DNA of 64,000 nucleotides from an uncultured Anaerobiospirillum sp. Lineage in GTDB: Bacteria; Pseudomonadota; Gammaproteobacteria; Enterobacterales; Succinivibrionaceae. Below the pieces are notes generated by a model. That model had not been told where the DNA came from, made no database searches, and saw only the letters and a program-made list of their open reading frames with translations. Below are positions 4,703 to 21,751 of this stretch, piece after piece. The DNA lies in assembly GCA_944392765.1 (NCBI GenBank), contig CALXXU010000004.1:1-64000 (forward strand), written 5' to 3'. Each line of letters begins with the position of its first letter. The first letter of the stretch is position 1. The position numbers were made by a program, and so were the translations under genes.

Positions 4703-7700
4703 TTGATTAAGCTGCATGTGCAAAGTTATACCAAAGGAAACTCTTCCAAAGTGAAACAGACTTCCTCTGCGCTCACTTTCTTACTGGCACAATACCGTGC
4801 CATCTTTAAGCGTGCCTACATCAAGGGCATCGCCTCCGCCGTCATCCTGACTGCAGGCTTGGCCGCTGGCCAGGCTCAGGCTGTTGAGTTCTACGGTTAC
4901 ACCAACTCTATCGTTCAAGGCTGGAAGGACGGCACCAACAAGTTCATTGAGTACGATAAAAATAATATTGGTGATAACTTAAACAAGTTACATCTCGACA
5001 ATTTAACCGGTATCAAAGACATTACTGCTATCAGTGGTGGTGCCATCACCCACTACTCAGGCGGAGCTTTGAGCAATAAACCAAATAGTGAAGATCAGGA
5101 TCTTAACATCCAGACTCCTTCAATTAAGTATATAAACCTCATGGGCAAGACCAATATGGTAGCCAATGAGGAAGGCACCTTAACCATTACCTCAACTGTC
5201 GATAGTGGTAGCCTGACCTTAGGTGCGGGTGAAATCGCTTTAAATGTAGAACGTGCACATAGTGGAGCTGTATATACCGGCGGTGCAGTCTTTGCTGGTA
5301 TGGCTATGAGCTATAGCGGCACTACCACCCCTTCCCCTGCCACTGTCTCAGTCACCAACAGCAACTTAAGCGTTAAGGAATCCTTCTACGCTGATGATGC
5401 GGTCATCGCAGGCTACGCCGTGCATGCCTTGTCGGGCACGGCCTCGGTTAGCGGCAATACCTTAAACTACACCTCGAACGTAGTAAAGCAAGCTGCAACT
5501 GATAAATATGAGGGCGACATTGGTATTCCATCGACCATGCTGGCCGGTGGCTTTGCTCGTAGTGCAGGCGGCAGTGCCGATGCCAAGAGCAACAAGCTGT
5601 TCTTAACGGGCGATGCTGATAGCCCAACTGTTATCACCGAAAAATCCTACTTTGGTGGTGGTTATGCTACGCTCTACAAGCTTGATGGCGGCACCAGCAA
5701 GACCAACAACAGCGTTGAGGCCAGCGGCAATATCGCTCAGTTGACTAATCTGAACTACGATGCCGAATCCACTACTGGTAAGGAAGCCTTTATCTTCGGC
5801 GGTATGGCTAATAATCAAGTTAAGGCAGCCGAGGCTAACCAAATCAAAGCAGGTGTCGCTACCGCCTCAAATAACGAGCTGACCTTAACTGACGTGGCTA
5901 TTACCACTAAAGCCACCGATACCTCGGTCAGCATCTACGGCGGTGCCGCTATTAACTCATCCTTATCTGAAGGTACTACCGGCAGCTCCACGGTCAAAGC
6001 TTCGGGCAACAAGCTCACGATCGACGCTAAGGCCCCAAAAGGCACCGAGATCAATATGGCTTCAGCAGCTGTGGCAGGTAAGGGTGCAACCATTGTCGGC
6101 GGCTTAGCTAAGCAAACCTCAGGTGACACGGATGTTACGGTTGAGGCTAGCAACAACACCCTGACCATTCAGGGCAATGTTAAGCTGACCGATGTTGACC
6201 TCTACGCTGGTCGTGCCGTTAACTCGGTAACTAATGCCAAATCAGCTGGTGTCACCACGGCCGTGGACAACGTCCTGAATGTGACCGGCAATGCCGTGTT
6301 AAAGAACACCTCGATTATCGCAGCAGCGGTTACGGGCGTTGATGCCACTAGCAAAGAGGACAACAATAAGATCATCCACGAGGGCAATAAGGCTATTGTT
6401 GACTCGGGCGTCGTAGTCATCGCCACGGATAGCAAGACAGTAAACATCGCTGGTGATGAGAGCGAGATCAAGGGCTCAGTCTGGGCGAAAACCGGTGGCA
6501 CCGTAACCGTAAGCGGTATCATCAAAGAGGGTGCTTCAGCTGCTGACAATAAGTTCTTTACTGGTACTGGCTCCTTAACGGGCACCCTCTACAACGAGGG
6601 CACGGTCAATGTCCACAACGAGCTCGATATCTCGCAGGGCAAGATTTACGCTTTAGCCGATAAGGCTGTAATCCATGTCGATGGCGCCAAGAGCAAGTTT
6701 GCAGATAGCGATGTTGACCCAATGGATGAGGGCTACGCTACCTTAAAGACCACTGAGCAGCAGATTAAGGACTACTTAACCGCAGACTCAGCCACCAACA
6801 TTACCCTGCCAGTTGAAAATAAGGGCGATACGCCTACCAAGGTTGATGAGAGCTCGGCTGGTATGCTCAAGGTCTCTTCGGGCGGTACTGTAGATTTCGG
6901 TACTTCTGTCACCCTGAGCAACTTCAACTTTAACGATGCTGACACCGCTGGTGCCATTGTCGTGCAAACGTCCAATAGCGACGCCTACTTCAAGGCCAGC
7001 ACGATCAATGTCGAGCACGCTTTAGCTAAGGATACAACCACTCAGTCTGATGTCTCCAAGCTGACTGTCGCTAAGGCCTCGCAGGTACACTTGGTAGCCA
7101 ATACCTTAAACTTAGGTGCTACTGGCCTGAACTCCTCTGATAGTGCCGACATCAGCTTTGCTGACGCCACGGTCAAGGAGAATATCAACTTCTTAGCCGC
7201 CACCTCGGGTGAGGACACCGGCACCGGTGATATCAACACCGGCTACCACCTGACCACTAAGGTTATTGGCTCCAACTTCATGAAGACCAATGACCAAAAT
7301 TCGAAGCTTGAGTACTACACTGCCTTAGACGGCAATGTAAATGGCCAAGTAAAGATTGTCTCGGGTGGCTCGTTAGAGATTGTTGATGGACACTGGACGG
7401 CTCACGACCAAATCACGGTCGCCTCGGGCGGTTCCTTAGTAGTCGGCGGTACCTCTAAGGCTGATCCATTAACCAATGGCAATAACAGCTTACCTGATGC
7501 TACCTTAACCACCTCTGGTGTAGTTCTTGACGTCAGCGTAGCCACCTCAGCAGGTAGTGAAGCTACCATTACGGCTGATGGCACTGGCCACGTCAGCGAC
7601 TGGGATGGTCAAGGTGATAACCGCGATGTCATCTTAGACTTAACCAGCGGCCTCACCATGCAAGGTGCTGTCGTAGGTGACACTGAGACCATCGCAGGCA

Positions 7701-10700: not shown

Positions 10701-11836
10701 CTAACGCCAAGACCGCTGAGCCTAAGGCTGTTGAGGCCAAGGAGACCACTGAGCTGACTCAAGTTGAGCCACCAGCCAACACTGCCCCAACCACCAAGGT
10801 CACCGGCAGCAGCTCCTTCTTAAACGAGGTCGTAACTGCTTCCCACGGTGCTCCTGCTGAGCAGGCTGCTCGTTTAGCAGTTTACGGTGGTGCCGCTCAG
10901 GTTGGTTTAGCCGCCGCTGGCAGCAACTCGGATGTCTTAGAGAGCCGCTTTGGTATTGGTGCTAACGCTCAGAGCCTGAATCTGGCCTCTAACGGTATGG
11001 GTGGCACCTTATGGGTTGCTCCTATCTACAAGAGCCAAGACTCCGATGGCTTTGGTGCTCAAGGCCTCGAGTACGGTGTTGACTTCGACCTCTATGGCGT
11101 CGCCTTAGGCGGTGACTACAAGGTTACGAATGAGATCACCGTAGGTGCGATGTTCAACGTCGGTTCTGGTTCCTTAGACGGCCAAGGCAATGCCGCTGCC
11201 GCTGGTACCTCCAACGACTTTGATTACTTCGGCTTTGCTCTGTACGGTGCTTACCAAGCAGGTGCTCTGACTGTCACCGGCGACTTAAGCTACACCCAGG
11301 TCGACAACGACCTCGAGGGCAGCAACGAGGTTGGTAAGCTGACCGCCTCGAGCGATACCTCGGCTTGGAGCTTAGGTGTTACCGGCCAGTACAAGTTCAG
11401 CTTTGCCGCTGTTGACGTAACGCCACACGCTGGTCTGCGCTTCACCTCGCTTGACCTCGACGACTACAGCTTAGAGGCTGCTGGTTACGGCAATGTCGCT
11501 AACTACGATGGTGATACCTTATCGGTCTTCTCCATCCCAGTAGGCGTAACCTTCGCTAAGACCATCGAAGGCGAGAGCTGGAACGTAACCCCAGCCTTAG
11601 ACCTCCACGTCACCGGCCAGTTTGGAGATGACGAGGCTGAGGGCTCGGTTGCTTGGACCGGCACTAACCTGTCGACCAACGTAAGCTCTGAGATCTTCGA
11701 CAGCTTCACCTATGGTGCAACTGTTGGCATCCAAGCTGAGAGCAACAGCTTCAGCTTCGGTGTGGGCGTAGGCTACACCGGATCGAGCAACGTTGATGAG
11801 TTCAGCGCTCAGGCTAACGCTCGCTTCACCTTCTAG
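4703..11836 (+). CDS. giant type Va (classical) autotransporter adhesin-like protein
   Basis: 2377-aa ORF. The N-terminus ends in a signal-peptide-like AVILTAGLAAGQAQA. The long Gly/Thr/Ser/Asn/Val-rich passenger carries recurring (A/V)SGN.L.(L/I/V)T motifs, consistent with a beta-helix. A Pro/Ala/Thr/Glu linker sits around residue 2000. The ~280-aa C-terminal barrel has alternating aromatic strands and ends ...QANARFTF followed by TAG. True start is uncertain: TTG 4703, GTG 4721, or GTG 4751 preceded by aaggaaa. Confidence 0.9.
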   Translation: MIKLHVQSYTKGNSSKVKQTSSALTFLLAQYRAIFKRAYIKGIASAVILTAGLAAGQAQAVEFYGYTNSIVQGWKDGTNKFIEYDKNNIGDNLNKLHLDNLTGIKDITAISGGAITHYSGGALSNKPNSEDQDLNIQTPSIKYINLMGKTNMVANEEGTLTITSTVDSGSLTLGAGEIALNVERAHSGAVYTGGAVFAGMAMSYSGTTTPSPATVSVTNSNLSVKESFYADDAVIAGYAVHALSGTASVSGNTLNYTSNVVKQAATDKYEGDIGIPSTMLAGGFARSAGGSADAKSNKLFLTGDADSPTVITEKSYFGGGYATLYKLDGGTSKTNNSVEASGNIAQLTNLNYDAESTTGKEAFIFGGMANNQVKAAEANQIKAGVATASNNELTLTDVAITTKATDTSVSIYGGAAINSSLSEGTTGSSTVKASGNKLTIDAKAPKGTEINMASAAVAGKGATIVGGLAKQTSGDTDVTVEASNNTLTIQGNVKLTDVDLYAGRAVNSVTNAKSAGVTTAVDNVLNVTGNAVLKNTSIIAAAVTGVDATSKEDNNKIIHEGNKAIVDSGVVVIATDSKTVNIAGDESEIKGSVWAKTGGTVTVSGIIKEGASAADNKFFTGTGSLTGTLYNEGTVNVHNELDISQGKIYALADKAVIHVDGAKSKFADSDVDPMDEGYATLKTTEQQIKDYLTADSATNITLPVENKGDTPTKVDESSAGMLKVSSGGTVDFGTSVTLSNFNFNDADTAGAIVVQTSNSDAYFKASTINVEHALAKDTTTQSDVSKLTVAKASQVHLVANTLNLGATGLNSSDSADISFADATVKENINFLAATSGEDTGTGDINTGYHLTTKVIGSNFMKTNDQNSKLEYYTALDGNVNGQVKIVSGGSLEIVDGHWTAHDQITVASGGSLVVGGTSKADPLTNGNNSLPDATLTTSGVVLDVSVATSAGSEATITADGTGHVSDWDGQGDNRDVILDLTSGLTMQGAVVGDTETIAGKATIEATKDGVVRLNATDVNTILGQNHRNGVDSGNGAFLSASSNGVLQVDGEVNAAFRDFDGDSGTNGFNLADTGILEATTLNVENANKEPAAGSSYQEDADYIASSAPIEFVGKVRADDVLLNDLQLTVKSGGTTSYASQVKVGSGTLEVAKSLSSVNDTVVFGNASGAAHLVLTSDVVGDEGTVDVNTLRVDSGSICVKNGEWTAQNITLSGADTSLTVGGDPHTDINDNETEASLTFNHLAMGEGSTFAVQADGKATVTTADFSALNDTGAVSVAGELTIIGANVSDDATNGVHFSDTAGSISIKNNGLLRFDNLATNGAILADGDYSGTTINLQDGYTRIDNNGGELYLNFDSGSSFDDEAIIAFKNALFTAGSFAADGMLKDGGILNIGAASFEGFNITERLEGTGLDGYTATWEQVKGFSNIYGNDVTNDVKNITNIRAIGLIDTVKGSWGSLSMVSGVATGAQVNLDGNTWLNYATGNNGFFISNHDHSAALGAKVASQKSLFLVNGGAIGHITLENGSADVERNYTTLDIADGDTTIESITASNNNASTDTYATRVNVRSNTTVTGEDGIRDVGEVNVLNGATLTSTQADIQELWVEESTADISGTLTVNGDGTAEGDGEALALGGQIKAGSIVLEDGSELNAAHGGTITTKSVTVANNSAGSTIQVGFDIDTITDIISEEHENSYYTGTGYLEVSDYLDLNGARLVVDPAYDEATSVAAVMNFKNGQDKNYDKVFNDAGIVNGSVLVGKNAALGIGASLAETREAIATYQTNGALDANKYGSILYLNGQLTLDGDSEIALNSDANVKTLDGIRDSLKYTITSQVQDQYADLGLGKNTAILMTEAAFENEKGEKTGVAISFDRTNAVVNGQGGDIVLVGAFDASQTLNFFKDKDGEGHEGAYIAGQDIKVYTQNGFLYTTLKAGTEDGYGKVLHVDTDRAFQVMSEASDPVVNTLISYHEDRLPADSTSGNDAGNDSGDDTVAWTEIQTPSAANAKTAEPKAVEAKETTELTQVEPPANTAPTTKVTGSSSFLNEVVTASHGAPAEQAARLAVYGGAAQVGLAAAGSNSDVLESRFGIGANAQSLNLASNGMGGTLWVAPIYKSQDSDGFGAQGLEYGVDFDLYGVALGGDYKVTNEITVGAMFNVGSGSLDGQGNAAAAGTSNDFDYFGFALYGAYQAGALTVTGDLSYTQVDNDLEGSNEVGKLTASSDTSAWSLGVTGQYKFSFAAVDVTPHAGLRFTSLDLDDYSLEAAGYGNVANYDGDTLSVFSIPVGVTFAKTIEGESWNVTPALDLHVTGQFGDDEAEGSVAWTGTNLSTNVSSEIFDSFTYGATVGIQAESNSFSFGVGVGYTGSSNVDEFSAQANARFTF

Positions 11837-11912
11837 TCACAGGGCAGCTTAAGCTGCACTAAGGCCCAAAAGGCCAAATAACCGCCGTCAGGCCGCGCCT
11901 GGCGGCCCCATA

Positions 11913-11937
11913 GGGCGCACCTTTGATGCGCCCTTTT
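11913..11937 (+). terminator. rho-independent terminator after the autotransporter gene
   Basis: Hairpin gggcgca-cctttga-tgcgccc followed by tttt. Confidence 0.6.
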
Positions 11938-11957
11938 ACCAACTTTAAAAAGACAAA

Positions 11958-12815
11958 ATGATGTATCACAACCTTGGAAATAGTGTTGTCTTAACGAATT
12001 GGGAACATCATGATAGCGTTTTAACCTCTATCTTCCCATTTGCCAAAGAAGAAGAGCTTAAACACACCAGTGGCGCTCTTGAGCCACAGCTCTGGCGTGA
12101 GGTTCCTTATGGCTTTGCCCACCGCCTCCCCGAGCAAGAGACCATCAAAATTAAGTTTTATGCCAAAAACATCAATGCCTCAGATAAGCTCATAGAACAA
12201 ATAACCCCACAGGCGGCAGAGTTTGCTCACGCTCAGGCCTATAAATTGATGTGCGACGAGCTGACCAAAGGCCTCAAAAACGAGAAGTTGACTAAGATTG
12301 CTCCTAAGGAGCTGCAATCTACCGACTCCGATCTGGCCTCTAATAGCGCCGCCCGCCTTGCCCGTACCTGGCAGGAAAAGATTGAGCTCTCACCATTGGG
12401 CGCGCAAGCTATCCTCAATGATGTAGTCTGGTCTCTTGAAGAGCTAGGCCGCCAGCTTCATACCAATCCAGGCTATCTAAGCCGTCACCTGACCTTAGCC
12501 GTCCCTACTTCGCATATGCCAAACCTCATGGCTCACACCGGAGTACTCAGCTCTGCCTACGATATGCTTCAGGCCACTTATCCTGACCTCAAGATTGTGG
12601 CTATCTCTGAGTTGGATACAGGCAAGCAAGCATGTGCGCTCTTGGTCTATGCCGATAAGAGCTTTGGCCCAGCAGGCTACTTTGCGCTCAACCAAGATCC
12701 GTGGTTAGCTGATATTGGTTCCCAAAACAATGCCACCTATTGTCAAGTGACTCTGCCCAGCATCCATTTGGTTCTTACCAAGCCTGAGCAAATCGTGGTC
12801 TTAGAGGACATTTAA
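11958..12815 (+). CDS. hypothetical protein, paralog A of the PEQI-tail family (possible HK97-fold/encapsulin-like C-terminal half)
   Basis: 285-aa ORF with no signal peptide. It shares with 13167..13985 and 14075..14812 the core LTL.VP.SH.P.LMA.TG....A..ML.A..P.L......L......ALL......GPA.Y..L and the tail LVLTKPEQIVVLEDI. Confidence 0.7.
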   Translation: MMYHNLGNSVVLTNWEHHDSVLTSIFPFAKEEELKHTSGALEPQLWREVPYGFAHRLPEQETIKIKFYAKNINASDKLIEQITPQAAEFAHAQAYKLMCDELTKGLKNEKLTKIAPKELQSTDSDLASNSAARLARTWQEKIELSPLGAQAILNDVVWSLEELGRQLHTNPGYLSRHLTLAVPTSHMPNLMAHTGVLSSAYDMLQATYPDLKIVAISELDTGKQACALLVYADKSFGPAGYFALNQDPWLADIGSQNNATYCQVTLPSIHLVLTKPEQIVVLEDI

Positions 12816-12838
12816 CCGCACAGACCCGACTAAGTCCT

Positions 12839-13078
12839 TTGCACTCGCCGGTACTAGAAGTAAAGGTGGCAGCGCTAGCCTTGCCGCCTCAAGGCGCCCA
12901 CTGCCGCAAAGCAGCGAGCGCCTTGTTTGAACAAGCAGGATATTTTGTCCTAGAGCGACCACCTTACTTCACCCCAACAGATTTGGCCCGCTCGCCCATA
13001 CCTAACACACTTACGAGCCCTAATCACAAGCTGGTCATCACTAACCCCGAGCAAATCGCGATTTTAACGGATATCTAA
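12839..13078 (+). pseudogene. 3' remnant of a fourth PEQI-tail paralog
   Basis: Only the last ~50 codons resemble the family: ...AGYFVLERPPYF...HKLVITNPEQIAILTDI. Its last ~55 nt are almost identical at nucleotide level to the 3' end of 13167..13985. It lacks the N-terminal two thirds and has a TTG start only. Confidence 0.6.
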
Positions 13079-13166
13079 CAGCATCTGGCGCATGAGAACG
13101 GCGACAGCTCACCTGCCGCACAAACTAAGTCGCAATTGCTTTAAACATGACTATAAGGAGGCCAAT
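13025..13166 (+). repeat. ~142-nt direct repeat, copy 1 (CDS 3' end + stop + conserved leader with SD)
   Basis: cacaagctggtcatcactaaccccgagcaaatcgcgattttaacggatatctaaca.catctggcgcatgagaacggcgacagctcacctgccgcacaaactaagtcgcaatt.ctttaaacatgactataaggaggcc... is near-identical to 13932..14074. Confidence 0.9.
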
Positions 13167-13985
13167 ATGGCTAACGCTCAAAACGACAAGACGTTAATCA
13201 AGCTGGACCAAATTGACGGTTCATTCACCAAGCTCATTCCACCTACCAAGGCTACTGAAATTTACCTTGATAACCTGCAGCATCTGATGCGTCACGAACT
13301 GACAAGCGACGGCTGCTCCTACCAACAAATCATTGCTGATGTCATCTGCCCAAACAGGGTGAATTTGGCTAAGGCCAATGAGTTAGCTTGCAAAATTGCA
13401 AGCTCCAAGTTAGACCACGCCTTAGAGACAGAGCTTCCGGCTTGCATTAATGTAATGTTGAATGAGGGCAAAATAACCTCCATTTCAACTGAGTCCGTAG
13501 AGCCAGAGCCACCTTATTCAGGCCCGCTAGTCGTCTCAGCCTGGGCCGACAAAGCACAAGTTTTACCTAATGGTAGCACCGCTATCTTTAACGATCTAAC
13601 TATCCTTAACGCGCAGCTGCGCAGTCAGATGCAAGAGAGCACAAGTTACCACGGCAACAAGCTCACTTTAATCGTGCCAGACTCTCACGTGCCGTTTTTG
13701 ATGGCCCAAACAGGCAGCTGCGACTCAGCTCTTGCTATGCTGAAGGCAGCATTGCCAAATCTCGAGCTTTTAACTGTTCCTGCTCTTAAGCGGCAGGAAG
13801 AAGCGTACGCCTTGCTCATCTGTACCAGCCAGGCTTATGGTCCAGCATGCTACTTGAGTTTAGACGGTGAAATTCACTTCAGAGCAATCCCACATATCGA
13901 GCACATTCTTTACAAACTACATATTCCTGCGCACAAGCTGGTTATCACTAACCCCGAGCAAATCGCGGTTTTAACGGGTATCTAA
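13167..13985 (+). CDS. hypothetical protein, paralog B of the PEQI-tail family
   Basis: ATG 13167 (residue 26 of track ORF 13092..13985) is preceded by taaggagg. This is the same position as the start of paralog C behind the duplicated leader. C-terminus is HKLVITNPEQIAVLTGI. Confidence 0.75.
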   Translation: MANAQNDKTLIKLDQIDGSFTKLIPPTKATEIYLDNLQHLMRHELTSDGCSYQQIIADVICPNRVNLAKANELACKIASSKLDHALETELPACINVMLNEGKITSISTESVEPEPPYSGPLVVSAWADKAQVLPNGSTAIFNDLTILNAQLRSQMQESTSYHGNKLTLIVPDSHVPFLMAQTGSCDSALAMLKAALPNLELLTVPALKRQEEAYALLICTSQAYGPACYLSLDGEIHFRAIPHIEHILYKLHIPAHKLVITNPEQIAVLTGI

Positions 13986-14074
13986 CAAAATCTGGCGCGT
14001 GAGAACGGCGACAGCTCACCCGCCGCACAAACTAAGTCGCAATTTCCTTAAACATTGACTATAAGGAGGCCTAA
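13932..14074 (+). repeat. ~143-nt direct repeat, copy 2
   Basis: See copy 1. It spans the last ~18 codons of paralog B, the stop, and the leader/SD of paralog C. Confidence 0.9.
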
Positions 14075-14812
14075 ATGGCTCAATCGCCTGTCAGAGAAAT
14101 TGAAGTCAAGCCAACTCCTACTGAAGCCTGGACCATGCGCTTTAGAGTAACAACCAAGAATCCGGACATGCCTTTACCGCCTGTACCAAGCAATCATATC
14201 TTTAGATTTGGTAACAAGGGTTGGACTCTTGATCAAGTCCTAACAAAAGCTCAAGAGTTTGTTGGCAATTGGTTCCAGCAAGAATTGTTAGCCAATCTCA
14301 GCTCATACATCAAAGACCAAGTAACAGGCAAAGAACCACTTGGTTTTACCTTAGTTGAGGCTGCTAAAGTTCCTGGGGAGCAAAACCAACAATCCGCTAG
14401 CTGGAAAGCTAAGGGCTCTGGTTATATCAGCCAGGACGTTGAGGCTGCAGTTGCAGCGCTAGGCAAAAGTATGGGGGTCGAGCCAAGCAGCATGCGCACG
14501 CGCAGTATGACCTTGTTATACCCTCTAAGCTACAATGGGCTAATGTATAAAGTCCAAAAGCAAATTGAACACAGCCTTCCGAAGCTCGAGCTCAAAATTA
14601 AGGACGATCTGGTAACAAACAACCATCCATTTGCTCTGCTTCTCTGCAATGATGAGGCTGCCACCAAGATCGGAACCTTTGAGTGCCACGACAAAGTCAA
14701 GCTGTTTCGTGATGATGAGAATCCTGACTTTTCCCCTTTCGTATTGGCATTCCCTTCTTACAGTTTGAACATCTTTGCTCCTGAGCAAATCGCTGTTTTA
14801 ACGGGCATTTAG
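14075..14812 (+). CDS. hypothetical protein, paralog C of the PEQI-tail family
   Basis: 245-aa ORF behind taaggagg. The core SMTLLYPLSYNGLMYK...PFALLLCNDEA... and the tail NIFAPEQIAVLTGI align with paralogs A and B. Stop is TAG where B has TAA. Confidence 0.75.
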   Translation: MAQSPVREIEVKPTPTEAWTMRFRVTTKNPDMPLPPVPSNHIFRFGNKGWTLDQVLTKAQEFVGNWFQQELLANLSSYIKDQVTGKEPLGFTLVEAAKVPGEQNQQSASWKAKGSGYISQDVEAAVAALGKSMGVEPSSMRTRSMTLLYPLSYNGLMYKVQKQIEHSLPKLELKIKDDLVTNNHPFALLLCNDEAATKIGTFECHDKVKLFRDDENPDFSPFVLAFPSYSLNIFAPEQIAVLTGI

Positions 14813-14982
14813 CCTGTGCGCTCCACTGTTAATCTCTGGAGTTGATTATGCCGCTGCTAGGAAGGCGACATTATGGGCACAGGGCCTTGGCCACTGTGCC
14901 TTCCCCTCTAGGGCAGGGAGGCTTGGTACATGCCGCTATGACCTGCTCGGGATAAGGCCGTGAGTCTTATCACCTAACCTAA

Positions 14983-15015
14983 GGCGCTGCCCCTTATGGG
15001 GCGTGCGCCTTTTTG
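14983..15015 (+). terminator. rho-independent terminator closing the paralog array
   Basis: Nested hairpin ggcgc-tgcccc-ttat-ggggcg-tgcgcc followed by ttttt. Confidence 0.6.
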
Positions 15016-15017
15016 CG

Positions 15018-15401
15018 TTATTTGAGCTGCACCGAGCGGCTGGCCTTGAGTCCATCGGCGCGCACCTCAAAGTACCCCGCATCGATCTTAAACGGCTTTA
15101 AGTCATAGAGCGCGTACTCGCCCACGGCCTCGCGCCCGCACACAATCTGGCGGCTGTCCATTTTCTTGACCGCCATGCCGTTGACTGTGGCTATGACCTT
15201 ACGTGGCAGCCCTAAGATGCGCACGCCCACCACACCTTGGGTCACACCCACGATATCCACGGCAACCACGTCATAGCTCTCGCCTTGTTGGCGCGCGTAA
15301 AAGGTCGCACAGTCATTGCGGGGCATGCCGCCGCGCTGCGCTGCTTGTGCGGTCGTGATGCAGGTCAGCCCCAGCAGCAGTGCCATCATCCATCGCATCA
15401 T
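15018..15401 (-). CDS. hypothetical secreted protein
   Basis: 127-aa ORF with a signal-peptide-like N-terminus (MMRWMMALLLGLTCITTAQAAQ). No family recognised. Confidence 0.55.
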   Translation of the reverse strand: MMRWMMALLLGLTCITTAQAAQRGGMPRNDCATFYARQQGESYDVVAVDIVGVTQGVVGVRILGLPRKVIATVNGMAVKKMDSRQIVCGREAVGEYALYDLKPFKIDAGYFEVRADGLKASRSVQLK

Positions 15402-15670
15402 TTGCCTCTACCTCCGCTCTGTTCTGCTTACCTTCTGAGCACTCGCTTTAATGTCATATTTTGGTGCAAGATGGCTCAATTGTGCCCAGCGGCGCATCGC
15501 TTGCTCACTTGTGGGCCATTCTCACCTAAGATTAGCATTTTACGCGGCTGTGCTGCGGGGCTTTTTGCCTTTTGTTAGTTGGGAGCGCTAAGTTTTGTGG
15601 TAACTGGGGCCAGTTAGCGTCCTTTTTCTTATTGGTTTAGTTCCCAGTCATTGTGAAAGGGATCTCTTCA

Positions 15671-16942
15671 ATGGAATTTGCCTCAAAGTGCCTGCACGGT
15701 GGTTACGAGCCTAAGAATGGTGAGCCAGGTGCTCTGCCTATTATCCAAAGCACGACCTTCAAGTACGACAAGACTGCTGATGTCGCTGCCCTGTTTGACC
15801 TCAAGGCCGCTGGCTTCTTCTACTCGCGCCTGGCCAACCCAACGGTTGACTACGTCGAAAAGAAGATTGCTGCCTTAGAAGGCGGCGTCGGCGCCATCTG
15901 CACTAGCTCGGGTCAAGCTGCTTGCTTTGTCTCGCTGATGAACCTGTGCCGCGCCGGTGACCACGTAGTTGCTTGCTCTAACCTCTATGGTGGCACCATC
16001 AACCTTCTGGCTGTGACCATGAAGCGCTTTGGCGTTGAGATCACCTTCGTTGACCAGCGTTTACCTAACTCTGAGCTGGTTAAGTACTTCCGCCCTAACA
16101 CTAAGGCCGTCTTCGGTGAGACTATCACCAACCCATCGACCGACGTCTTAGATATCGCCCGTATCGCTGATCTCGCCCACAGCCAAGGTGTACCTTTAAT
16201 CGTGGATAACACCTTTGCTACCCCTTATCTGTGCCGTCCAATCGAGTTCGGTGCTGATATCGTCATGCACTCCACCACCAAGTATATCGATGGCCACGCC
16301 TTAGGCGTCGGTGGTGTCATCGTCGACTCGGGTAAGTTCGATTGGGCCGCTCATAAGGACAAGTTCCCTGAGTTCAGCGAGCCAGATGAGTCCTACCACG
16401 GCTGCGTTTACACTGAGGCTTTTGGCAACGCTGCCTATATCGTTAAGGCCCGTGCCCAGTTAATCCGCGACTTAGGCTGCCTGCAAAGCCCACAGAATGC
16501 CTTCTACATCAACTTAGGCCTTGAGACCTTACCTCTGCGTATGCAGCAGTACTGCAAGAACGCTCAGGTGGTCGCCGAGTTCTTAGCCAAGCACGAAAAG
16601 GTCGCTCAGGTTGCCTACCCAGGCCTGCCAGGCAGCCATGACCACGAGCTGGCCCAGAAGTACCTGCCAAATGGTTGCTCGGGCGTAATCGCCTTCGTCT
16701 TAAAGGGTGGCCGTGAGGCTGGTGTCCGCTTCATCGACAGCCTCAAGATGATCAGCCTTGAGGTCCACGTAGCAGACATCAAGTCCTGCGTCCTGCACCC
16801 AGCTAGCTCGACCCACCGTCAGCTCACCGATGAGCAGTTAGCCGCTGCTGGTATCGATGCTGGTTCGATCCGCCTGTCGGTTGGCCTTGAGGATGTTAAG
16901 GACACCTTAGCTGACCTCGAGCAAGCTTTAGCTCAGGCCTAA
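15671..16942 (+). CDS. metY: O-acetylhomoserine sulfhydrylase (PLP-dependent Cys/Met metabolism family), copy 1
   Basis: MEFASKCLHGGYEP..., SRLANPT, the PLP-lysine context HSTTKYIDGH, and RLSVGLEDV. The start is set at the ATG homologous to the copy 2 start (residue 7 of the track ORF). Confidence 0.88.
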   Translation: MEFASKCLHGGYEPKNGEPGALPIIQSTTFKYDKTADVAALFDLKAAGFFYSRLANPTVDYVEKKIAALEGGVGAICTSSGQAACFVSLMNLCRAGDHVVACSNLYGGTINLLAVTMKRFGVEITFVDQRLPNSELVKYFRPNTKAVFGETITNPSTDVLDIARIADLAHSQGVPLIVDNTFATPYLCRPIEFGADIVMHSTTKYIDGHALGVGGVIVDSGKFDWAAHKDKFPEFSEPDESYHGCVYTEAFGNAAYIVKARAQLIRDLGCLQSPQNAFYINLGLETLPLRMQQYCKNAQVVAEFLAKHEKVAQVAYPGLPGSHDHELAQKYLPNGCSGVIAFVLKGGREAGVRFIDSLKMISLEVHVADIKSCVLHPASSTHRQLTDEQLAAAGIDAGSIRLSVGLEDVKDTLADLEQALAQA

Positions 16943-17300
16943 TCTCGCTTGAGCTTGGGCCGAGCTTGAGCTCAGAACAAGCACAGCTTGTGCTCAAACT
17001 TAATGCGGAGCTTAGACCAAGCTCGACTTGAGCTCAAACATAAGCCGGTTGTGCTGAGGCCAGCCCAGCTTGAGCTTTGGTCTATCCGGTTCGAGCTGAG
17101 GTCTAAACTTGCTTGAGCTCAGGTTTAAGTCAGCTTTAGCTCAGGGCTTAAACCGACTTGAGATCAGGCTTAAATTGGTTTGGTCTCAAGCCCAATGCTG
17201 GGTTCGTCATAACCCAGCGCCCGCACCCCCAACTATCTCTGGTAGCTGGGGGTGCTTGTTTTTGGGGCAAGCAAAATCGTTATCAGGCCACGTATTTATC
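16943..17300. repeat. GC-rich cryptically repetitive spacer built from cttgagctcag / gcttag-type words
   Basis: gagcttgagctcag, cgacttgagctcaa, cagcttgagcttt, ttcgagctgagg, gcttgagctcagg and cgacttgagatcagg recur every 20-40 bp. There is no ORF. Confidence 0.7.
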
Positions 17301-17510
17301 TAGCCTCGGCGCAAGATTAGGCAAGCGCCCGCCCCTTAGTCCTACTAATCATGAGCGCTCAGGGCAAGAAGTGCACAATGCGCTCAAACTTCGTTTTGGG
17401 GCCTCAGTCCAGCACAGGGCAGGCCTGAGCCAGCGTGGGACAAGGCGTGCAGCGCTTTGGGCAGCCGCTAAGATGGAGCGCTCACAAGCCCAATTCGACG
17501 GAGGATCAAG

Positions 17511-18812
17511 ATGGAATTTGCCACCCAATGCCTGCACGCCGGTTATGAGCCTCAGAATGGTGAGCCAGGCGCACTGCCGATTATCCAAAGCACCACCTTC
17601 AAGTACGATCAGACCGCCGATGTCGCGGCCCTCTTTGACTTAAAGGCTGCGGGCTTTTTCTACTCACGCCTTGCTAACCCAACCGTAGATGCCGTTGAGC
17701 GCAAGCTCGCCGCCTTAGAAGGCGGTGTCGGCGCGATCTTAACCAGCTCCGGTCAAGCTGCCAGCTTTATCGCCTTGATGAATCTGTGCCACGCCGGTGA
17801 CCATATTGTGGCCAGCTCCACTATCTACGGTGGTGTGATCAACCTCTTAGCCGTGACTATGAAGCGTTTTGGCATTGAGGTGACCTTGGTCGACCAGAGC
17901 TTGCCTAACGCTGAGCTTGATCAGTACTTTCGCCCAAACACTAAGGCCTTCTACGCTGAGAGCGTGGCCAATCCATCGGCACGCGTCTTAGACTTTGCCC
18001 GCATGGCCGAGCTCGCGCATAGCCACGGCGTGCCGCTGGTAGTCGATAACACTTTCGCTACCCCTTACCTGTGCCGCCCAATTGAGTTTGGGGCCGATAT
18101 CGTGGTTCACTCTACCTCAAAATACCTGGACGGCCACGCCTTAGGCTTGGGCGGTGCCATTATCGACTCGGGTAAGTTTGATTGGGTCGAACATAAGGAC
18201 AAGTTCCCAGAGTTCAGCGAGCCTGACGCGTCTTATCACGGCTGTGTGTACACCGAAGCTTTCGGCAACGCTGCCTATATCGTTAAGGCTCGGGCCCAGC
18301 TCATTCGTGACATTGGCTGCCTGCAAAGCCCACAAAACGCGTTCTACCTCAACCTGGGTCTTGAGACCTTACCTCTGCGCATGCAGCAATATTGCAAGAA
18401 CGCTCAAGCCGTGGCTGAGTACTTAAGCAAGCATCCTAAAGTCGAGGAGGTCTTCTACCCCGGCCTTACGTCCAGCCCAGATCACGAGTTGGCGCAGAAG
18501 TACCTGCCACGTGGCGTATCGGGCGTGCTCTCATTCACGCTCAAGTGCAATGAGGCAACCGCCAGCGCCCCTGATGCGGGACGTCAGTTAGCCGCGCAAT
18601 TCATCGATCACTTACAGCTCGTGGCTTTAAAGGTCCACGTGGCCGATATCAAGAGCATTGTGATGCATCCGGCCAGCACCAGCCACCGCCAGCTCACGGC
18701 GGAGCAATTGGCTGCCGCCGGAGTTAGCCCAACCTTAGTTCGCCTCTCGGTGGGTCTTGAGGATGTCAGCGATATCATTGCTGACTTAGAGCAGGCCTTA
18801 GCGCAAATCTAA
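17511..18812 (+). CDS. metY: O-acetylhomoserine sulfhydrylase, copy 2 (tandem paralog)
   Basis: 433 aa, colinear with copy 1 and mostly identical by eye. Motifs HSTSKYLDGH and RLSVGLEDV are present. It carries a short insertion (CNEATASAPDAGRQLAAQ). SD ggagga precedes the ATG. Confidence 0.88.
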   Translation: MEFATQCLHAGYEPQNGEPGALPIIQSTTFKYDQTADVAALFDLKAAGFFYSRLANPTVDAVERKLAALEGGVGAILTSSGQAASFIALMNLCHAGDHIVASSTIYGGVINLLAVTMKRFGIEVTLVDQSLPNAELDQYFRPNTKAFYAESVANPSARVLDFARMAELAHSHGVPLVVDNTFATPYLCRPIEFGADIVVHSTSKYLDGHALGLGGAIIDSGKFDWVEHKDKFPEFSEPDASYHGCVYTEAFGNAAYIVKARAQLIRDIGCLQSPQNAFYLNLGLETLPLRMQQYCKNAQAVAEYLSKHPKVEEVFYPGLTSSPDHELAQKYLPRGVSGVLSFTLKCNEATASAPDAGRQLAAQFIDHLQLVALKVHVADIKSIVMHPASTSHRQLTAEQLAAAGVSPTLVRLSVGLEDVSDIIADLEQALAQI

Positions 18813-19164: not shown

Positions 19165-20076
19165 TCAGTGGTAGTCACCAAAGGTGGGAATGGTCGCAGC
19201 GTGGTCAGGCCCTACCACTTGGGCGAAAAAGCGATTGATAGCAAGCGGGCAGAAGACCTTAACCTGAGCCGCTCGGTCGAAGCAAAAGCCCCCATAATGG
19301 CGCTCAAGCTCTAAGCATAGCTCCTCCGTGCTCAGATGCAGGCGCTCCGCTGCCACCTCAAGGTAATCCTCAAAGTAAGTGGTGAGCTCAGCTGCGGTGT
19401 AGCCCAACAAGTCCGCATACGCAGGCTCCCAGGTGAGATCACGGATATCGGAGCCGCCCCAAATGGTGGAAGATTGGTGACAAGTCACTCCTGTTAAGAG
19501 CGTAAACCAAAGGTTCGGCAACTCCCGTAGCCACGCTGCTAACTGCCGGAGCACCTTGCTGGTAGCATCAAAAGCCGCTCTGTGATGGAGCTGAGCCGAT
19601 AATGGGAAATCCCAATCATCAATCAGAACGACAAGATCAGTCCCGTGGGTCATGACCTCGAGTTCACCTAAAGTCTCAGTCAAAGATAGGCCTTGTTCGC
19701 TAAGCGCAGCGGCCTCAGTAAAGCCTGCTGCCTCAAAGGCAGAGCACAAGCGCGCCGCCAAGTCAGCACTCAGCGTGGTGGGGTTAGTTAGGCCCGCTAA
19801 GGACATCATGACCACCGGAAAGGTGCCGTGCGGCCACCGGGCTTGCACCGCCAGCCCCGCACAAGCTGGATTGTCTTGAGCACCATGAGCAAAGAGCTCT
19901 TGCAGCGTTGATAGCAGCAAGGTTTTGCCAAAACCATTAGGTCGCGCAAGAAATAAGGTTGAGCCCAGAGCCAGCTCTGCCAGCTGAGCAGTCTTATCCA
20001 CCAAGAGCTTATGCTGCTGACGCAACTGCCTCAAGCTCTCCGTCCCCAGTGGCAAGTCTTGTAACGCTTGTTCCAT
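19165..20076 (-). CDS. predicted AAA-ATPase (PF09820-like N-terminal domain), truncated form
   Basis: From ATG 20076 (SD aagga): MEQALQDLPLGTESLRQLRQQHKLLVDKTAQLAEL...LFLARPNGFGKTLLLSTLQELFAHG...VLIDDWDFPL. This matches the characteristic LP.G...F..l......vDKT..i..l...FL.RPRRFGKSL pattern of that family (recalled). It lacks the usual C-terminal PD-(D/E)XK domain. Confidence 0.65.
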   Translation of the reverse strand: MEQALQDLPLGTESLRQLRQQHKLLVDKTAQLAELALGSTLFLARPNGFGKTLLLSTLQELFAHGAQDNPACAGLAVQARWPHGTFPVVMMSLAGLTNPTTLSADLAARLCSAFEAAGFTEAAALSEQGLSLTETLGELEVMTHGTDLVVLIDDWDFPLSAQLHHRAAFDATSKVLRQLAAWLRELPNLWFTLLTGVTCHQSSTIWGGSDIRDLTWEPAYADLLGYTAAELTTYFEDYLEVAAERLHLSTEELCLELERHYGGFCFDRAAQVKVFCPLAINRFFAQVVGPDHAATIPTFGDYH

Positions 20077-20491
20077 CTTCTGTTCCTTGACACTCAACGG
20101 TCGGCGCGCCATGACCACTGTACGCCCTCTCAAGCGCTTGGTCGTGGGCTGCTTTCAATAGCTTGATCGTTATGCGGTCGTTATGCGGTACTTCGGCTCA
20201 ACGCGGTGGTCATTGCTGGTCGTAGCGCTTAAGAACGAAGCACAAAGACCGTACCATAATGCAGCCGCTGCGAGCTGCTACGAGACCTGCCTGATAGCGA
20301 CCTTTAGCTTGAGACAACTGGCGCCCCAGTGATGACAACTGGCGATCCAGTGATTTTGCAGCTCCCCCACACCAGCGCCCAGCTCATTGAGACAAGGCCT
20401 TAGGCGTAACGAACCCTCACCCATAACGTTCCATGTTCACCACTTAAGTATATAATAACACCACACTGTAGACTTAACGAGGAGCATATCC

Positions 20492-21751
20492 ATGGAGCAA
20501 CTACCCCGTCTCACCCTCGGCAATCCCTACTTTTGCCGCGTGCGCGATGAACACACCGTGCTGGTGGACAAGACTGCTAAGCTGGTCGAGCTGACCAACA
20601 ATCACAGGGTCTTTTTAGCGCGCCCGCGCCATATGGGCAAAACCCTGCTACACACCACCCTTACCGAGCTCTTTACCCATGGCGCCCGTAATAATCCTTA
20701 CTTTGAGGGCTTAGCGATTAAAGAGCAGTGGCCGGATGAATGGCGCTACCCGGTGGTTTACCTCTCACTCTTTGGGCTAAGTGACACAGAGAGCTTGGAG
20801 GCGAGCCTGTGCGCCCGTATCCGCTCTGCCTTGGTCAAAGCAGGTTTTAATGAGGCGCAAGACCCTCCAGTAGATGTTCTGAACCACCAATTAGAGCGCA
20901 TGAGCAATCTGATCTTTGGTCATAAAATCGCGGTGCTGATTGATGACTGGGTCTATCCGCTCCTGACCTGCGGTAACGATGTCGCTGCATACGAGGCTAG
21001 GCATGCGGTATTTCAGACGCTCATGGGCTGGCTCTATGTTCAGGAAGGCATAGCTTTCACCTTGGTGACTGGTTTAGGCCGCGATCCCTATCCATCCATG
21101 GTCGGAGACCTATTGGACATCAGCCGAGATACCTTTTTTGCAGATCTCACCGGCTTTACCTCCGAGGAAATCAGCACCTACTTTGCGCCACACCTCAAGC
21201 GTGCCGCTGAGCTGCGAGGCTGTAGCTCAAGCGAGCTGGTCGATCAAATCCAGGAGCACTACGGCAACATGTGCTTTGACCACGACTACCAAGTCATCGT
21301 GGCATGCCCATGGTCGGTCACCAACTTTTTGCAGAAAGTGGTCGATCAGCCTGACAGCGAGCCGCAGTTCGTGCCGTTTCGCAGGGAAGGCTATCGCTCC
21401 GATAAGCTGAGCATGCGACCGACGTCAGGTAACTTGGTCAATCCAAAGCCTCAAGCCCCCAACCGCGATCAAGTGCTGCGGCAAGCCTTCCTCAACATGA
21501 TTGAGCAGGCCTCAGATCCCCATTCTTGGCGCAAGCAAGTTCCGGTCAAGCGCGACCTGCTGATAAATACCTTGACCCAAGAATATGAGGTAATCAAGCG
21601 CGCAGAGGTCGAAGTTGACTACGATGAGATCAAGGGCATGGTCTTAGGCTGCGTCGCTTTTGCCGGTATGCGCGGCATGTCTTATGACTGCCAGATCGAG
21701 TGCGATGAGTTAGTGGCGCGCTTTATCGAAGCCTTACCAAATCTGCCTTAG
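20492..21751 (+). CDS. predicted AAA-ATPase (PF09820-like), paralog of 19165..20076
   Basis: MEQLPRLTLGNPYFCRVRDEHTVLVDKTAKLVEL...VFLARPRHMGKTLLHTTLTELFTHG...VLIDDWVYPL. SD gaggag is present. The gene is divergently oriented to its paralog. Confidence 0.65.
   Translation: MEQLPRLTLGNPYFCRVRDEHTVLVDKTAKLVELTNNHRVFLARPRHMGKTLLHTTLTELFTHGARNNPYFEGLAIKEQWPDEWRYPVVYLSLFGLSDTESLEASLCARIRSALVKAGFNEAQDPPVDVLNHQLERMSNLIFGHKIAVLIDDWVYPLLTCGNDVAAYEARHAVFQTLMGWLYVQEGIAFTLVTGLGRDPYPSMVGDLLDISRDTFFADLTGFTSEEISTYFAPHLKRAAELRGCSSSELVDQIQEHYGNMCFDHDYQVIVACPWSVTNFLQKVVDQPDSEPQFVPFRREGYRSDKLSMRPTSGNLVNPKPQAPNRDQVLRQAFLNMIEQASDPHSWRKQVPVKRDLLINTLTQEYEVIKRAEVEVDYDEIKGMVLGCVAFAGMRGMSYDCQIECDELVARFIEALPNLP

Follow-up and report, generated by a model that had tools for sequence, protein, structure and literature searches.

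In a 64,000-nucleotide stretch of DNA from an uncultured Anaerobiospirillum sp. (the window), a giant autotransporter gene is followed by three intact genes and one 3' remnant that encode related proteins. Our analysis gives good support to the conclusion that these genes form a cassette array encoding domesticated major capsid proteins of phage origin. The C-terminal ~165 amino acids of the array proteins are homologous to the major capsid proteins of the Pfam family PF09950, with an identity of ~25% in this conserved half, the complete proteins are predicted to adopt the HK97 fold, and the array occupies a chromosomal slot whose content changes from strain to strain. An original prediction, made from the sequence alone, had described the genes as tandem, diverged paralogs with hypervariable N-terminal halves and a conserved C-terminal core like that of family-1 encapsulins or other HK97-like proteins.

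A mechanical listing of open reading frames (ORFs) on the plus strand gave four ORFs of 285, 79, 297 and 245 aa, all directly 3' of a 2377-aa ORF on the same strand (Table 1). We call ORF1, ORF3 and ORF4 cassettes 1, 2 and 3, and ORF2 the remnant; loci carrying relatives are designated L### and relative proteins P####. The true start of cassette 2 is an ATG at 13167, internal to the listed ORF 13092-13985. The homologue P0001 begins there, and the strong Shine-Dalgarno sequence TATAAGGAGGCC, which is also present before ORF4, lies ahead of it. Because homologues start at this ATG, 272 aa is the right size for cassette 2, as originally predicted along with 285 and 245 aa for the other two. The predicted order of three intact genes and one 3' remnant after a giant autotransporter was likewise borne out by the ORF listing, the family profile and the PF03797 match. 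Searching the six-frame translation of the window with the family profile returned exactly these four ORFs (E 6e-90 to 1e-16) and no further family member elsewhere in the 64 kb.

We compared the array proteins with known families. Pfam and NCBIfam gave nothing usable for the four products, and among the proteins of the window Pfam reported no match to PF09950 and none to Linocin_M18 (PF04454) at E <= 10. PHROGs returned a weak match to phrog_264 'major head protein' (ORF1, E 1.2e-4; ORF3, E 5.7e-3). When the family profile was searched against the PDB, two distinct sequences were found, the major capsid proteins of the Pseudomonas phages E217 (8frs) and Pa193 (9b40), with E 1.7e-6 for a profile of 9 sequences and 1.3e-8 for one of 43; no other PDB sequence, including any encapsulin chain, matched even at E <= 10. 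Using hhalign, the family of short array-like proteins aligned to PF09950-type phage proteins with 99.6% probability (E 6e-25), family columns 108-272 pairing with phage columns 191-353 up to a shared ..IT.P..IA..TGI end. The N-terminal ~107 residues of the short family could not be aligned to the phage proteins, and the detectable homology is hence not full-length. A profile built from the phage major capsid proteins alone recovered ORF3 (E 2.6e-17) and ORF1 (E 2e-15) from a small local set. The profile search that had been proposed, with Linocin_M18 among its targets, thus found no encapsulin family, and profile-profile comparison established homology to PF09950-type capsids. The predicted resemblance to family-1 encapsulins was right as to the HK97 fold, but the nearest relatives are PF09950 phage capsid proteins, and the likeness to a Thermotoga maritima encapsulin motif is one of fold only, because neither Linocin_M18 nor any PDB encapsulin sequence matched.

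Relatives of 339-384 aa match or approach PF09950 (Major_capside, formerly DUF2184), and the distant member P0044 scored 16.3 bits against this family, which has a cut-off of 26.8. The best-scoring long relative, P0045, sits in an E217/Pa193-like head-tail module with genes for a portal, Mu F, Pa193_gp24, a cement protein, the capsid protein, E217_gp27, a tail terminator, sheath and tube. Phage contigs of this type (L026-L028) come from BRZ_* assemblies, which share their naming with the Anaerobiospirillum metagenome-assembled genome (MAG); they have a GC content of 0.55 and correlate with the window at 0.88 in tetranucleotide composition. The link between the E217-like contigs and Anaerobiospirillum as a host is weak. 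In these contigs a gene for a 240-aa collagen-repeat protein (PF01391; L026 6181-6903) lies directly upstream of the major capsid gene.

We predicted structures with AlphaFold2 and searched them with Foldseek, listing the best 50 matches per search. The ORF3 model (9-sequence alignment) had a predicted local distance difference test score (pLDDT) of 70.7 and a predicted template modelling score (pTM) of 0.71, and the ORF1 model (43 sequences) reached 88.1 and 0.86. For both models, all of the matches listed were capsid or virus-like-particle entries or encapsulins, with the capsids of Pa193, E217, FCWL1 and T1, the Pyrococcus furiosus virus-like particle and the encapsulins of Myxococcus xanthus, Bacillus methanolicus and T. 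maritima at the top (E 3e-11 to 1e-5). ORF1 aligned over 224-292 columns, near its full length, with TM scores of 0.45-0.56, and its best match was the Pa193 capsid protein (E 2.9e-11). In the ORF1 model the N-terminal part consists of short strands and a hairpin with a low-confidence tip (residues 28-70), followed by a 32-residue spine helix (75-106) and then the helices and sheets of the A- and P-domains. From this order of elements, the whole protein would be a compact HK97-fold subunit rather than the C-terminal half alone. The models therefore predict a complete HK97 fold with the topology of the HK97-fold superfamily (Pfam clan CL0373), as the structural check put forward with the original prediction had anticipated; its HK97-like C-terminal core extends, in the models, over the whole protein, including a spine helix and hairpin in the half described as hypervariable.

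The products of all four ORFs can be aligned, and the invariant columns are concentrated at the C-terminal PEQI..L..I end. Identity among the three intact paralogs is 11-16% before a conserved tryptophan and 26-36% after it, and the N-terminal halves are therefore clearly more diverged. That the proteins share only their C-terminal ~110 aa was slightly too strong a statement, as the family profile aligns all three intact paralogs end to end. In a neighbor-joining tree of the C-terminal 165 residues, calculated without support values, the short family is monophyletic and the three window paralogs fall into three deep clades, a topology that points to a single domestication followed by old diversification. 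Recent local duplication as the origin of the paralogs is ruled out by these deep clades, and with cassettes swapped between strains as well, we abandoned the idea of local duplication and diversification. Cassette 3, which shares a separate deep clade with P0023 and P0034, has a 7-residue deletion in the SHVPFLMA region of the alignments. The remnant (..AGYFVLERPPYFTPTDLARSPIPNTLTSPNHKLVITNPEQIAILTDI) corresponds to the 3' end of a cassette of which L001 has an intact copy (1273-2169, 298 aa); its DNA homology to the intact copies in L001 and L023 begins at about 12864-12926 (blastn), and the part upstream has decayed. Synonymous differences among the four copies of the C-terminal motif show that it is kept at the protein level. 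We also considered the motif as a mere DNA recombination site and rejected this, because of these synonymous differences and because phage capsid proteins share the motif.

We next determined how widespread the family is. An exhaustive HMMER search of 1.84 billion cluster representatives retrieved 59 proteins, about 45 of them short (207-312 aa) and about a dozen of 339-384 aa; the short proteins lack 60-130 residues compared with PF09950 phage capsid proteins. The species representatives in GTDB contained one locus only, in an uncultured Anaerobiospirillum MAG with the same gene order as the window (L010), and close relatives syntenic with the window were present on ENA and Logan assembly contigs. 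Every family context with a readable organism was Anaerobiospirillum, a taxonomic range that rests on one named MAG, synteny and composition, and many family members lie on contigs of 1-3 kb. A scan for the motif PEQI[AV]VL gave no confirmed relatives in JGI metagenome contigs or IMG/VR, and tblastn with ORF3 found no match in phage and plasmid collections. The distant member P0038 (L016) is a singleton at another locus without an autotransporter neighbor. Its neighbors of 367 aa, 1980 aa and twice 273 aa were checked and are neither family members nor an autotransporter; the 1980-aa protein (L016 11411-17353) is of low complexity with many AEAKARAEAEAAERARREQEERERQE repeats and is followed by the two 273-aa paralogs and a RelB/YafQ pair. 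Our literature searches turned up no account of the family or of capsid-derived arrays in Anaerobiospirillum. To judge from these sequence searches, the family is unnamed in the sources searched, belonging neither to Linocin_M18 nor to PADLOC families, nor to PF09950 at the Pfam threshold.

The syntenic loci revealed that the array occupies a variable slot between conserved flanks. Upstream of it are ValS, a small unknown gene and the autotransporter gene, and downstream are a 127-aa gene on the opposite strand, two Cys_Met_Meta_PP genes, two AAA-ATPase_like genes and a Mur ligase gene. The flanking DNA is 87-97% identical between the strains and the window. Homology breaks off precisely at the stop codon of the autotransporter gene (11835) and is regained from 14780 onward (blastn with L001, L002, L010 and L023). 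In between, related strains carry 1-3 cassettes of different types, remnants, split or truncated copies and unrelated genes. The window and L007 have three cassettes and a remnant, L001 has a 158-aa unknown gene with cassettes of 298 and 268 aa, and L002 has a truncated 227-aa cassette with a 268-aa cassette. A phosphoribosyltransferase (PRTase)-like gene, a small remnant and one 278-aa cassette fill the slot of L010, a 160-aa gene with a further type of cassette (289 aa) that of L023, and one intact and one split cassette that of L020, which is from a more distant species with another autotransporter passenger domain. Unequal recombination has a substrate in the 155-nt junction repeat within the window array, which combines a cassette 3' end, a spacer of ~90 nt and the next cassette's Shine-Dalgarno sequence. 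Annotation of the syntenic loci found no portal, terminase, protease or known cargo gene, and the array flanks contain no integrase, replication, terminase-small-subunit or connector gene, tRNA or att site. The window has no tRNA, and no Rfam family was detected in positions 1-30000. The survey of homologs and neighborhoods, which had been suggested as a check, thus yielded about 45 short relatives and, in the syntenic loci, a conserved gene order around a variable slot, and the absence of portal, terminase, protease and obvious cargo genes nearby was as had been noted. The unusual situation envisaged at the outset, of paralogs resembling shell proteins outside a prophage, agrees with the HK97-fold models and with the lack of phage genes in these loci.

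Pairwise Nei-Gojobori estimates of the ratio of nonsynonymous to synonymous substitution rates (dN/dS) were 0.22 for ORF3 against a 75%-identical L001 allele (dS 0.74) and 0.53 for ORF4 against the L007 allele (dS 0.29), and 0.05-0.15 for neighboring genes. The array genes are under purifying but relaxed selection, and by their sequences they appear to be functional and to change more quickly than housekeeping genes. Between the window and L007, ORF1 and ORF3 hardly differ (dS 0.005-0.02), while MetY2, the second Cys_Met_Meta_PP gene, has a dS of 0.64 at a distance of 3 kb, suggesting a recent exchange of the array between diverged backgrounds. The GC content of the array is 0.48, compared with 0.54 for the window.

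The array is probably its own transcription unit, apart from the autotransporter transcript, as there are terminator-like hairpins on both sides. The spacer between the autotransporter gene and cassette 1 folds with -50 kcal/mol (z = -4.4; 0 of 200 shuffles were as stable). Its last hairpin, GGGCGCA..TGCGCCC followed by UUUUA, looks like an intrinsic terminator; with no more than 4 U, it went unlisted in a simple terminator scan. We considered the conserved ~90-nt spacer between cassettes as a structured RNA or a recombination site, and its folding was no more stable than that of shuffled sequence (z +1.4). A scan for sigma-70 promoters gave fewer sites than in shuffled sequence.

Table 1. Positions of the array elements and bordering features in the window.
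Feature	Position	Strand	Evidence or remark
Giant autotransporter gene, 2377 aa	4703-11836	+	PF03797 beta-domain at residues 2103-2356, E 6e-29; left boundary of variable slot
Structured spacer, four hairpins	11837-11957	+	RNA folding; 121 nt
Cassette 1 (ORF1), predicted compact HK97-fold capsid-derived protein, 285 aa	11958-12815	+	Family profile E 1.8e-77
3' remnant (ORF2) of a fourth cassette type, 79 aa	12839-13078	+	Family profile E 1.4e-16 over profile positions 220-272
Junction repeat, copy 1	12994-13148	+	85% identical over 155 nt to 13901-14055
Cassette 2 (ORF3), predicted compact HK97-fold capsid-derived protein, 272 aa	13167-13985	+	Family profile E 6e-90; mechanical ORF from 13092
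Junction repeat, copy 2	13901-14055	+	Counterpart of 12994-13148
Cassette 3 (ORF4), most diverged paralog, 245 aa	14075-14812	+	Family profile E 1e-66
Right boundary of variable slot: PEQIAVLTGI codons and stop	14780-14812	+	Inter-strain homology restarts (blastn)
Terminator-like hairpin with U-run, between array and convergent 127-aa gene	14980-15017	not assigned	Terminator scan, RNA folding

How could capsid proteins have come to reside in this slot, and what might they do there? There is good support for an ancestor, related to the PF09950 capsid protein of E217/Pa193-like myophages, that lost its N-terminal ~100 residues and its phage neighbors. From it came a small family of compact (207-312 aa) proteins with a complete predicted HK97 fold, which divided into deep paralog lineages that are seated as 1-3 cassettes in the one chromosomal slot from the autotransporter gene to the 127-aa gene. 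We favor the hypothesis, with a probability of roughly 40%, that the array proteins act in the cytoplasm as dominant-negative or redirecting capsid subunits and in this way disturb the assembly of phage capsids. In the HK97 fold, the A-domain and the P-domain sheet provide the contacts inside a capsomer, and the N-arm, E-loop and spine helix provide the contacts between capsomers and with the scaffold. The conserved C-terminal half of an array protein could join or cap capsomers made by the capsid protein of an infecting phage, and the replaced N-terminal half could then derail shell closure. A conserved half for contacts within the capsomer and a replaced half for contacts between capsomers would be the architecture expected of a subunit that enters a capsomer and is unable to extend the lattice. 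Different cassettes might match different phage capsid types, which would explain the deep diversity, the swapping of cassettes, the remnants and the relaxed selection. The behavior of the array is typical of conflict loci and unlike that of encapsulin operons, in view of its deep lineages, presence/absence variation, remnants, low GC content, faster evolution and exchange between strains. A more specific version, in which the locus is a chromosomal arsenal shuffled by recombination that protects the cell because it poisons or misdirects the head assembly of E217/PB1-like phages, with each lineage tuned to a different capsid type, is one that we hold to be somewhat unlikely.

Several points weigh against interference with phage assembly. 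Co-assembly with a phage capsid protein is something we infer, and in the conserved half the family shares only ~25% identity with the phage capsid proteins closest to it. We know of no phage of these bacteria, and the phage-host link consists of sample naming and base composition. PADLOC-DB 2.0 had 0 families matching the four products at E <= 10, and the other slot genes are not recognised defence genes, the PRTase match being below the Pfam threshold. The neighbor-joining tree is without support values, the dN/dS estimates are pairwise with several values from few substitutions, and sequence exchange with the other MetY paralog may have raised the high dS of MetY2, as suggested by its dS of 0.64 compared with 0.09 for the 127-aa gene between the same strains. 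Causes other than phage pressure could underlie the variability of the cassettes. Moreover, complete, compact HK97 subunits of encapsulin size, as the models predict, would fit self-assembly equally well.

In the main alternative, each cassette protein might accordingly form a small icosahedral cytoplasmic shell, making the family a fifth kind of encapsulin-like nanocompartment. The variable N-terminal half, which faces the lumen in encapsulins, would select different cargo or would itself be a fused mini-cargo, and the paralogs would make separate or mixed shells. In its favor, the modelled HK97 fold is complete and compact and has no delta domain, the proteins are about as large as encapsulins (245-285 aa), and encapsulins rank with the best structural matches (TM up to 0.56). 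In addition, the genes lie outside any phage or satellite and are under purifying selection with a strictly conserved C-terminal strand, and Pfam places PF09950 in the same clan as Linocin_M18, CL0373 (PMC8346489). We nevertheless regard such shells as unlikely, considering that no Linocin_M18 match and no encapsulin sequence match was found at E <= 10 and that the syntenic loci contain no conserved neighboring cargo gene and no known cargo family. The elevated dN/dS and the low GC content also argue against this explanation, and closely related strains differ in the number and type of their cassettes and carry remnants and split copies, which would be unusual for a metabolic organelle.

The remaining explanations have much lower probabilities. 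A functional link to the autotransporter, with the array proteins serving as a cytoplasmic holdase or cage for the passenger or its export or being co-released with it, appears improbable. An autotransporter gene does precede the array in the window, and likewise in each related locus whose sequence extends that far upstream; L010 and L020 are examples, the latter from a more distant species with a different passenger domain. However, the gene order as a whole (ValS ... autotransporter ... 127-aa gene ... two MetY genes) is common to these loci, and synteny therefore explains the adjacency. Terminator-like hairpins separate the autotransporter gene from the array, other genes can be inserted between it and the cassettes, P0038 has no autotransporter neighbor, no signal peptides were apparent at the N-termini of the array proteins by eye, without a predictor, and no autotransporter is generally known to need such a partner. 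By these sequence comparisons, we read the adjacency as conserved synteny, not as functional coupling. That the genes are inert debris of old prophages, persisting by chance, is largely refuted and very improbable: three intact ORFs with strong ribosome-binding sites, dN/dS of 0.22-0.53 on alleles diverged to dS 0.3-0.7, the monophyly of a family that is shorter than any phage relative and kept in several species, and the absence of any other phage gene from the examined loci outweigh the 3' remnant in the window, the remnants or split copies in L010, L020 and L002, and a GC content below that of the genome. We attach least weight to the array being part of a phage satellite, such as a phage-inducible chromosomal island (PICI) or a capsid-forming (cf-PICI-like) element, that comes with capsid proteins of its own. 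Satellites are known to encode HK97-fold capsid homologues, among them Ccm (PMC8569155), but there is no integrase, replication, terminase-small-subunit or connector gene, tRNA or att site near the array, the slot is flanked by housekeeping genes at the same place in all strains, and no match was found in IMG/VR or in phage and plasmid collections.

Comparison with known systems sets the array apart from each of them. The major capsid proteins of E217/Pa193 (PB1-like) myophages have the HK97 fold, homology over the C-terminal ~165 residues and the best structural match. The array proteins are 60-130 residues shorter, score below the Pfam threshold and have N-terminal ~107 residues that cannot be aligned, and their genes are tandem, strain-variable and chromosomal and lack the portal, scaffold, cement and tail neighbors seen in L026. 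Family-1 encapsulins (Linocin_M18, e.g. from T. maritima and EncA of M. xanthus) are likewise compact HK97-fold proteins of ~260-290 aa found outside phages, with similarity to the array proteins at the level of fold (Foldseek E 1e-9 to 1e-5). No sequence relation to them was detected, however, and the array is without an adjacent cargo gene (DyP, ferritin-like, IMEF or hemerythrin), has a variable copy number and swaps cassettes.

Ccm of SaPIbov5 is a capsid homologue 24% identical to the phage protein, which co-assembles with it, occupies pentamers and redirects assembly (PMC8569155). It resembles the array proteins in being a diverged HK97-fold capsid homologue encoded outside a phage, and its entry into the lattice is the mode that we propose for them. 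Ccm is encoded by a single gene in a mobile satellite with integrase and packaging genes and serves satellite packaging, whereas the array has several paralogs and no satellite, and co-assembly is conjectural. The family-4 'A-domain' encapsulins (DUF1884, PF08967) are also HK97-derived proteins outside viruses that have lost part of the ancestral capsid protein (PMC8346489). By their label they are reduced to the A-domain, while the array proteins, which have no Pfam match, are predicted to keep the spine helix, P-domain strands and an E-loop-like hairpin. Tab, an anti-phage defence that blocks virion assembly (PMC10884400), and other assembly-blocking defences share with our hypothesis the proposed target stage, which is virion morphogenesis and not nucleic acid.

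So far, the known HK97-fold proteins of hosts outside viruses comprise the four families of encapsulins and single genes in phage satellites. The array family would be an additional, independently domesticated HK97-fold lineage with a traceable phage ancestor of the E217/Pa193 type. Domesticated HK97-fold proteins are themselves already known (encapsulins, Ccm), and the novelty is in the genomic behavior and the traceable ancestor. Interference with phage assembly, if true, would add a principle of defence in which the cell employs a copy of the virus's own building block. Should the locus be an arsenal with lineages tuned to different capsid types, it would constitute a new class of anti-phage defence, and HK97-fold genes would for the first time be seen to undergo birth-and-death evolution in a bacterial chromosome. 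If the proteins self-assemble instead, they would make up a new family of encapsulin-like proteins and provide a naturally diverged set of shell proteins for use in engineering. The family, unannotated in all sources searched, is small enough for a complete study.

The 158/160-aa protein encoded between the autotransporter and the cassettes in L001 (414-890) and L023 (537-1019) looks all-helical, has no Pfam match and is absent from the window. The 191-aa slot protein of L010 (8670-9245) has weak, sub-threshold phosphoribosyltransferase matches (Pribosyltran, PRTase-CE) and could represent a further accessory or conflict gene at this hotspot. Between the window and L020 (3975-9845), the autotransporter gene retains the extended signal-peptide region and the beta-barrel (DNA matches at 4706-4883 and 11012-11835), and the passenger domain of ~2000 aa is replaced, so that the autotransporter is itself a hypervariable surface protein. 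The constant right-hand neighbor of the slot in all strains is the gene for the conserved 127-aa protein (15018-15401, minus strand), which has an N-terminal signal-peptide-like segment (MMRWMMALLLGLTCITTAQA) and no Pfam match. It is followed by the tandem Cys_Met_Meta_PP paralogs (O-acetylhomoserine sulfhydrylase-like, MetY; 15653-16942 and 17511-18812), which share ~75% DNA identity and each follow a long leader (15402-15652 and 16943-17510) without an Rfam riboswitch at threshold. Downstream of this pair lie two divergent AAA-ATPase_like (PF09820) genes (19165-20133, minus strand; 20492-21751, plus strand), a region that is partly different in L023, where a single 592-aa version is present.

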